4,005 nt of DNA. Source: a virus. Taxonomy: Duplodnaviria > Heunggongvirae > Uroviricota > Caudoviricetes. Location of the stretch: the IMG/VR virus record IMGVR_UViG_2541047173_000019, one strand, 5' to 3'. Made by a program: the position numbers and the translations under genes. The notes below the pieces were generated by a model. The model had not been told where the DNA came from. It saw nothing but the letters and a program-made list of their open reading frames with translations, and did not search any database. Shown here piece after piece: positions 3,314 through 3,421 of this stretch. Numbering within the stretch: the stretch's first letter is position 1; each line of letters starts with the position of its first letter.

Positions 3314-3349
3314 TATTCAATTTTACAGGTAAATACTGTTAAAAGCATC
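3314..3349 (-). promoter_or_regulatory. candidate repressor-maintenance promoter (PRM-like) giving a leaderless or near-leaderless transcript
   Basis: TAAAAT on the minus strand at 3325..3320, 6 nt before the repressor ATG at 3313. No SD, and only weak -35 candidates near 3343-3348, which directly abut the operator half-site at 3350-3364. Confidence 0.4.
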
Positions 3350-3388
3350 ACAATAAAAAACTGTTGATTGCATACAGTTTTTTATTGT
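3350..3388. promoter_or_regulatory. right operator (OR-like): perfect 15-bp inverted repeat with a 9-bp spacer in the divergent promoter region
   Basis: ACAATAAAAAACTGT (3350-3364), spacer tgattgcat, ACAGTTTTTTATTGT (3374-3388); the two halves are exact reverse complements. A -35-like TTGATT on the plus strand at 3364-3369. Confidence 0.65.
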
Positions 3389-3421
3389 AGGCTTTGCTTA
3401 TAGTTTTTAGAGGAGGGCAAA
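3389..3421 (+). promoter_or_regulatory. rightward early promoter/RBS region (PR-like) for the Cro-like gene
   Basis: TATAGT at 3399-3404 and AGGAGGG at 3411-3417, 4 nt before the ATG at 3422. The -35 is poorly defined and would overlap the second operator half-site. Confidence 0.4.

Follow-up and report, generated by a model that had tools for sequence, protein, structure and literature searches.

The DNA analysed here (the window, 4,005 nt in all) includes a repressor gene whose ATG stands a few bases downstream of a -10-like hexamer. This organization raises three questions: where the repressor transcript starts, which codon is used for its translation, and whether the repressor, once bound to DNA, stimulates its own promoter.

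The immunity region and its genes

The window is the immunity region belonging to a cryptic lambdoid prophage adjoining yccA in E. coli O157:H7. In the Sakai strain it bears the annotation prophage Sp4. The same prophage is CP-933M in strain EDL933, and the genes are denominated paaR1, paaA1 and parE1, names attributed to Hallez et al. 2010. The locus is the homologue of paaR2-paaA2-parE2 of CP-933P, and receives no more than a passing mention in PMC8630535, as located on CP-933M. Positions 2200-3700 match many E. coli O157:H7 chromosomes with 100% identity, and positions 1001-3700 are identical to EDL933, where the genome coordinate equals the window coordinate plus 1252381 (offset verified). 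In a colinear comparison positions ~1-1000, and some part of 3701-4005, differ from EDL933, and the window therefore derives from a strain other than EDL933. Start mapping relied on 1001-3700, where the two are identical. The segment is single-copy across O157:H7 genomes, and the mapping of Cappable-seq reads is thus unambiguous.

Features of the region are listed in Table 1. The repressor gene corresponds to EDL933_RS06140 (1255293..1255694, minus strand). The order regulator, PaaA antitoxin, ParE toxin is that of the PaaR-PaaA-ParE three-component toxin-antitoxin module. A terminator-like hairpin located between the parE stop codon and the leftward operator/promoter region (OL/PL) would stop the repressor operon ahead of the leftward early promoter. 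The window also hosts the DicF small RNA (681-732, minus strand; Rfam RF00039, 65.7 bits), beside whose 3' side an inverted repeat of 19 nt (524-542 / 653-671, 95% complementary) may form a structure for processing.

Table 1. Coordinates of genes, promoter elements and candidate operators in the window
Feature	Position	Strand	Remarks
Repressor, PaaR type, 133 aa	2912..3313	-	Pfam HTH_3, E = 2e-12
PaaA-type antitoxin, 63 aa	2693..2884	-	Pfam PF21217 (PaaA2), E = 6e-19; own Shine-Dalgarno sequence, -8.6 kcal/mol
ParE-family toxin, 95 aa	2406..2693	-	Pfam PF05016 (ParE_toxin), E = 3e-17
Terminator-like hairpin followed by a T-run, 3' of parE	2372..2387	-	consensus match only
YdaS-family Cro-like gene, 90 aa	3422..3694	+	Pfam PF15943, E = 8e-10
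YdaT-family (CII-like) gene	3678 onward	+	5' part in window
Repressor ATG	3311..3313	-	A = 3313 = transcription start of the PRM-like maintenance promoter
Gap TGAATA, 6 nt	3314..3319	-	from -10 to start codon
PRM -10 TAAAAT	3320..3325	-	-12..-7; 5/6 consensus matches; ends 6 nt 5' of mapped start
Nominal PRM -35 ATGCTT	3343..3348	-	2/6 matches to TTGACA; 17-nt spacer
Candidate operator, OR3-like, ACAGGTAAATACTGT	3325..3339		-12..-26 of PRM, centre -19; overlaps first base of -10
Candidate operator, OR2-like, ACAATAAAAAACTGT	3350..3364		-37..-51 of PRM, centre -44; ACA...TGT dyad
Candidate operator, OR1-like, ACAGTTTTTTATTGT	3374..3388		-12..-26 of PR; -61..-75 of PRM, centre -68
PR -35 TTGATT	3364..3369	+	18 nt 5' of TAGGCT; TTGAYY in relatives
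PR -10 TAGGCT	3388..3393	+	ends 6 nt before start 3400; TAnnCT invariant in alignment
PR start	3400	+	Cappable-seq 1255781, 6/8 conditions, 0-22 reads per million; weak in lysogen
Shine-Dalgarno sequence of Cro-like gene, AGGAGGG	3411..3417	+	-12.5 kcal/mol; 4 nt before ATG
Candidate operator pair, OL-like	2315-2329 and 2340-2354		flanks leftward PL-like promoter
PL-like promoter	TTGACA 2340..2335; TAGATT 2315..2310; start 2303	-	start 6 nt past TAGATT
YdaT (CII-like) candidate operator, TTGATTCATGAAAATCAA	3671..3688		-34..-51 of leftward start 3637

The repressor transcript starts on the A of the annotated ATG

The minus strand reads, in order, ...ACAGTTTTTTATTGT-G-ATGCTT-TTAACAGTATTTACCTG-TAAAAT-TGAATA-ATGATGAGC, TTAACAGTATTTACCTG being the 17-nt spacer. 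As originally predicted, TAAAAT (3325..3320) ends 6 nt 5' of the ATG, the A of which is at 3313, and the ATG lacks a Shine-Dalgarno (SD) sequence. The pairing energy of the 20 nt preceding it with the anti-SD is +0.4 kcal/mol; values from -4.8 to -12.5 kcal/mol were obtained for five neighbouring start codons. A properly spaced extended -10 is absent. Hexamers matching TATAAT at at least five of six positions are found at 0.29% of the window positions, and among 122 ORFs called mechanically over 50 kb of EDL933 a single one has such a hexamer exactly 6 nt upstream. Chance would not often produce this geometry. A scan of the window for consensus promoters detected none of the three promoters implied by the mapped starts (PRM, PR, PL).

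Zehentner et al. 2023 (PMC10469882) had applied Cappable-seq to E. coli O157:H7 EDL933 to map transcription starts, testing eight conditions in triplicate. The technique, used with a TSS tag, picks triphosphorylated 5' ends. One main start, 1255694 on the minus strand, is reported for gene RS06140 in 8/8 conditions (PMC10469882, Table S5). It corresponds to window 3313, i.e. to the A of the repressor ATG, and the RefSeq coding sequence begins at the same base. Mean reads per million at this position were 598, 565, 653, 509, 508, 387, 361 and 441 (PMC10469882, Table S7). Among the rows listed, 30-254 reads per million were scored for dnaK and 68-150 for talB; within these rows start 3313 is one of the stronger starts, keeping in mind that reads per million mirror RNA stability and capture besides promoter strength. 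As a strong start coincides with the A of the ATG whichever of the eight conditions is considered, the repressor transcript is, with near certainty, leaderless. The published start bears out the claim that the transcript begins at or next to the A of AUG. A start further upstream, yielding a conventional leader, was also looked for, and none is the main start in the tables of PMC10469882. Folding prediction leaves the initial 11 nt of the mRNA unpaired, and the fold has a lower stability than those of shuffled sequences (z = +1.1).

Public data establish where transcription starts at the three promoters and how strong these are, relative to one another, in the lysogen. The maintenance promoter PRM is high (361-653 reads per million), whereas the lytic promoters PR (0-22) and PL (2.4-7.6; start 1254684, minus strand, 6/8 conditions, PMC10469882) are low.

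Neither the gene nor leaderless genes are discussed in PMC10469882, where the term 'leaderless' occurs only in the reference list. A literature search for paaR1, or for 'leaderless' together with CP-933M, retrieved no statement on this repressor gene. Among the papers searched, the paaR2 paper alone joins the term to this prophage, and it holds no data on this locus. The conclusion that this gene is leaderless is correct, previously unstated and unsurprising to a specialist.

Conservation of the start codon and of its distance from the -10

Relatives of the repressor were collected from a viral contig collection (50 loci, 48-100% identity to the repressor); a scan of reference genomes yielded one relative only, from Arsenophonus. 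Upstream regions were compared in 24 distinct variants, window included. Each of the 23 distinct PaaR1-type variants, which extend down to 66% protein identity, has TAAAAT-N6-ATG, and the Arsenophonus relative (48% identity) features TATAAT-N7-ATG. The gap varies in sequence (TGAATA, TGAGAA, TCACCC, CGAATA, TGGAAA, TAAACG, TGAACG, GAATGC); its length is fixed at 6 nt, 7 in Arsenophonus. The -35 region is also poor in relatives (GTGCTT, GAGATT, ATGATA). None of the variants has a good SD upstream of the repressor ATG, anti-SD pairing ranging from +0.9 to -3.3 kcal/mol, with most values near zero. As read from these alignments, selection maintains the -10/6-nt/AUG arrangement, whereas the operators and the sequence of the gap are free to drift.

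The first codons are conserved as well. Changes at codons 3-8 are mostly synonymous or conservative (GCC/GCT/GCG, CTA/TTA/ATA, GAA/GAG, GTA/ATT/ATA, TCT/TCA/TCG), a pattern indicating that these codons evolve as coding sequence. In the group of variants at 66% identity, the ATG located 6 nt past TAAAAT lies three codons upstream of the tblastn match (MKRMTTLEI...). In loci of this group (L055-58) Met9 is replaced by Thr, and hence no internal start is available there. Translation from the 5'-terminal AUG is very probable on these grounds. Past the gap the minus strand reads ATGATG, and the adjacent second ATG (3310) may be the codon really used.

PaaA and ParE matches are absent by tblastn in four relatives (L051, L052, L053 and L059; 48-80% identity, repressor at 1501 onward). 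These retain the leaderless geometry and the operators, and the toxin-antitoxin pair appears to be an optional cargo of the repressor operon.

Two alternatives would dissociate the 5' end at 3313 from initiation at the first AUG. The 5' ends could be generated by processing of longer, PRE-type transcripts starting at 3637, a leftward start seen in 8/8 conditions; yet the TSS tag selects triphosphorylated ends (PMC10469882), a conserved -10 lies exactly at -12..-7 of 3313, and the equivalent start of paaR2 has been confirmed, both by 5' RACE and through expression driven by its own promoter fragment. Processing is hardly credible in the light of these data. Alternatively, transcription may start at 3313 but the protein at the internal Met9 (MYRISK, ATG 3289), the first 24 nt serving as a short leader. 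This would fit the finding that the alignment to the 434 repressor begins at residue 11, since a protein started at Met9 would keep the whole helix-turn-helix, and a weak AGAAG is found 8-12 nt 5' of the Met9 ATG. The original prediction had mentioned an internal MYRISK start endowed with its own SD as an outcome that would speak against it; the SD detected is almost nil (-1.9 kcal/mol), far weaker than those of the neighbouring genes. Moreover, codons 3-8 are kept as coding sequence and differ between lineages by synonymous changes of the third base, Thr replaces Met9 in L055-58, an N-terminal extension of ~9 residues is found also in helix-turn-helix relatives, such as the phi467 and Stx2-phage CI proteins, and the ATG 6-7 nt past the -10 is invariant. 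Initiation at Met9 is accordingly very unlikely, and, judging from the coding character of codons 3-8 and from the Thr found in one lineage, MYRISK is ruled out as sole start.

Candidate operators

The motif ACA-N9-TGT occurs six times in the window (1.06 expected; none of 200 shuffles reached six), and five of the six sites fall in two operator regions. Three are located in the 108-bp intergenic region, between the mapped starts 3313 (minus strand) and 3400 (plus strand). OR1 is the exact reverse complement of OR2. OR2 ends on the base with which the PR -35 begins, and an identical OR2 copy is found at 2315-2329. A single base (3349) separates OR2 from the PRM -35. It had been proposed that a poor -35 directly adjoins an operator half-site at 3350-3364. 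The -35 is indeed poor (2/6 matches) and one base apart, but the supposed half-site is a complete 15-bp operator (ACA-N9-TGT), one of three. The OR3-like site (3325-3339), overlapping the -10, had been missed. The 39-bp palindrome formed in the region was also considered as one operator with two half-sites. This reading was discarded: each 15-mer has its own dyad, and the third copy, at 3325-3339, stands alone, with no partner at the palindrome spacing.

The predicted lambda PRM-like logic finds support in the arrangement of the three operators, the centres of which lie at -19, -44 and -68, against -19, -42 and -66 in lambda. In PRM, PR and PL alike one operator lies at -12..-26 and a second at about -37..-51. 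At the left operator two matching sites, possible partners for DNA looping, were found ~1035 bp from the right operators; a third OL site was not found. In relatives three sites are located at the same offsets (-75, -51, -26), with inner bases changed. Between OR2 and OR3 there are invariably 10 nt, of drifting sequence.

The repressor is made of an N-terminal 434-like helix-turn-helix and a C-terminal PaaR2-like domain. No LexA/CI-type self-cleavage family (peptidase S24) is among its Pfam matches. The best relative of solved structure is the 434 repressor (E = 3e-5, over the alignment beginning at residue 11), with which it shares helix 2 (QAELA) and the recognition-helix residues T-Q-Q...Q. 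In 434 complex structures the recognition-helix glutamines read the outer ACA bases. The repressor is predicted, from these resemblances, to bind the ACA-N9-TGT repeats. The recognition helices of the Cro-like protein (AQQTVWQW) and of the repressor (TQQTVQQW) are alike, which fits with the two proteins reading the same sites. Similarity to PaaR2 is confined to residues 37-133 (42% identity over 97 aa) and is strongest in the last ~45; the N-terminal DNA-binding regions do not align. A link between the leaderless trait and the DNA-binding domain was also considered and rejected. CI relatives sharing the helix-turn-helix only (phi467, Stx2 phages, PS-1) have AGGA-type ribosome-binding sites, and the leaderless trait therefore does not follow the DNA-binding domain.

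Other transcription starts

Of the claims made on the Cro-like gene, the strong AGGAGGG ribosome-binding site holds (-12.5 kcal/mol), the TATAGT -10 does not. TATAGT is present (3399-3404), but contains the mapped start 3400 and is not conserved in relatives; the -10 of PR is TAGGCT.

A leftward start at 3637 was detected in 8/8 conditions (1256018, minus strand; PMC10469882). It is antisense to the Cro-like gene and looks like a PRE-type promoter. The candidate operator at 3671-3688 matches the YdaT site in the form TTGATT-N6-AATCAA given in PMC9986795. Start 3637 is detectably active in the lysogen, whereas its CP-933P counterpart is silent without YdaT; some repressor mRNA may therefore carry a long leader.

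A further rightward start at 3431 (EDL933 1255812; 8/8 conditions) falls within the Cro-like gene, 9 nt into it, and the three operators all lie upstream. From its candidate promoter, TTGCTT-18-CAAAAT, ydaT could be transcribed independently of the repressor, or a truncated YdaS be made. The only match of the consensus scan, TTGTCG-18-TACAAT (2424-2453, plus strand), lies 7 nt 5' of an antisense start at 2460, inside parE, seen in 5/8 conditions. Additional antisense starts are at 2653 and 2689. Transcription from 2460 may provide an antisense RNA against the toxin mRNA.

Proposed working of the switch

RNA polymerase uses the -10 TAAAAT and initiates on the A of the repressor AUG, giving a repressor-antitoxin-toxin mRNA devoid of a 5' leader. 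On such an mRNA the first cistron would have to be initiated by leaderless recognition of the 5'-terminal AUG; the antitoxin and toxin cistrons would rely on their own ribosome-binding sites. Repressor bound to OR1 and OR2 would block the rightward promoter (TTGATT-18-TAGGCT, start 3400), and the dimer on OR2, one base upstream of the poor PRM -35, would probably stimulate PRM. At high repressor levels OR3, overlapping the PRM -10, would be filled and PRM shut off. Since OR1 and OR2 are identical and OR3 is not, the sites could be filled in order. The second operator pair, ~1 kb leftward, would control the PL-like promoter. Taken as a whole, a leaderless PRM-type start at 3313 coupled to a tripartite right operator in a lambda-like switch is a probable account of the region.

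Stimulation of PRM by the repressor on OR2 is the less secure part of this scheme, and is only slightly favoured. PRM has a poor -35 and no properly spaced extended -10, and yet a strong start. Operator centres at -44 and -19 are compatible with activation from the middle site and repression from the proximal one, a behaviour demonstrated for lambda and, in outline, for PaaR2. On the other side, the OR2 centre, at -44, is 2 bp further out than the -42 of lambda. Since PR and PL also have operators at -37..-51, position alone does not show activation. Similarly, the DNA-binding domains of the repressor and of PaaR2 do not align, and the activation described for PaaR2 is not simply transferable. 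PRM might rather be intrinsically strong, the A/T-rich -37..-51 region acting as a UP-like element and bound repressor acting only to repress. An A/T-rich stretch, TTTTTTATT, is found at -47..-39, PR and PL feature an operator at an equal relative position with no need of activation, and a UP-like A/T-rich sequence has been proposed beside the leaderless cro promoter of phage PY54 (PMC4488713). Against this, a promoter with 2/6 matches at the -35 and no properly spaced extended -10 ranks among the stronger starts in the rows listed (dnaK 30-254, talB 68-150), the OR2-OR3 spacing stays at 10 nt while the sequence drifts, and the promoters of the paralogue paaR2 and of lambda are both activated. 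An unaided PRM is thus rather doubtful, and stimulation by OR2-bound repressor is the reading retained.

Comparison with known systems

Leaderless repressor mRNAs are already established for lambda cI, PY54 cI and PaaR2. The closest system is paaR2-paaA2-parE2 of CP-933P, where the leaderless status was determined by 5' RACE, N-terminal sequencing (MQKKE) and mass spectrometry (Jurenas et al. 2021, PMC8630535), and low PaaR2 raised PRM933P about 4-fold (PMC8630535). The two regions share the repressor-PaaA-ParE operon order, the divergent YdaS/YdaT layout, a distal OL/PL-like site, a related repressor C-terminal domain, a nearly identical ydaT with its operator, and the -10/6-nt/ATG geometry (GATAAT-TACCAC-ATG in CP-933P). 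In contrast, the two repressors do not align in their DNA-binding domains, there is no relationship between the Cro-like proteins, the operators are ACA-N9-TGT in the window and GTTTAGTAA-type repeats in CP-933P, and the intergenic region measures 108 bp in the former, 97 bp in the latter. CP-933P paaR2 has been studied directly; experimental data on the window copy come from genome-wide start mapping. Compared with CP-933P (L002), the window features a sharp mosaic joint at ~3667. Rightwards to 4005, a segment including ydaT and the YdaT operator, there is 1 mismatch in about 340 nt; to the left cro, operators and the repressor DNA-binding domain are unrelated to CP-933P.

In lambda the cI transcript similarly starts from the A of AUG, with the same 6-nt gap (TAGATT-TAACGT-ATG) and a weak -35 (annotated record, cI start 37940). 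Like lambda, the window has a candidate distal OL, of which only two sites were found. Lambda operators are 17 bp long, those of the window 15 bp. Unlike in lambda, OR1 and OR2 are exact inverted copies in the window, the repressor has no peptidase S24 family match, and a toxin-antitoxin pair takes the place of rexAB.

The operators of phage 434 are 14 bp long (ACAA-N6-TTGT). As those of the window, they start with ACA and end with TGT. The two systems differ because the window operators are 15 bp long, and the window repressor has an unrelated C-terminal domain. In PY54 the cI mRNA starts from its AUG, as determined by RACE, and cro also is leaderless (PMC4488713); in contrast, the Cro-like gene of the window has a 21-nt leader and a strong SD.

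Significance

The near identity of ydaT, the identity of the YdaT operator and the related C-terminal oligomerisation domains of the two heteroimmune repressors suggest a further possibility. YdaT of either prophage should recognise both YdaT sites. The CP-933M/Sp4 and CP-933P/Sp12 switches could then be wired together, a shared YdaT driving both PRE-type promoters and mixed PaaR1/PaaR2 oligomers coupling the two, with the leaderless start, retained despite unrelated DNA-binding domains, as a selected feature of the repressor scaffold. Such a connection is unlikely; if true, two otherwise independent bistable switches would be coupled, and the leaderless start would not be an accident.

The understanding of switches of this type is unchanged by these data. 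For the prophage, the promoter and operator map is fixed, and the -10 of the Cro promoter corrected. The annotated start codon of the repressor is very probably right, despite the absence of a ribosome-binding site before it. For E. coli O157:H7, the locus provides a second case, heteroimmune to the first, in which a toxin-antitoxin pair is driven by a leaderless repressor promoter of lambda style.
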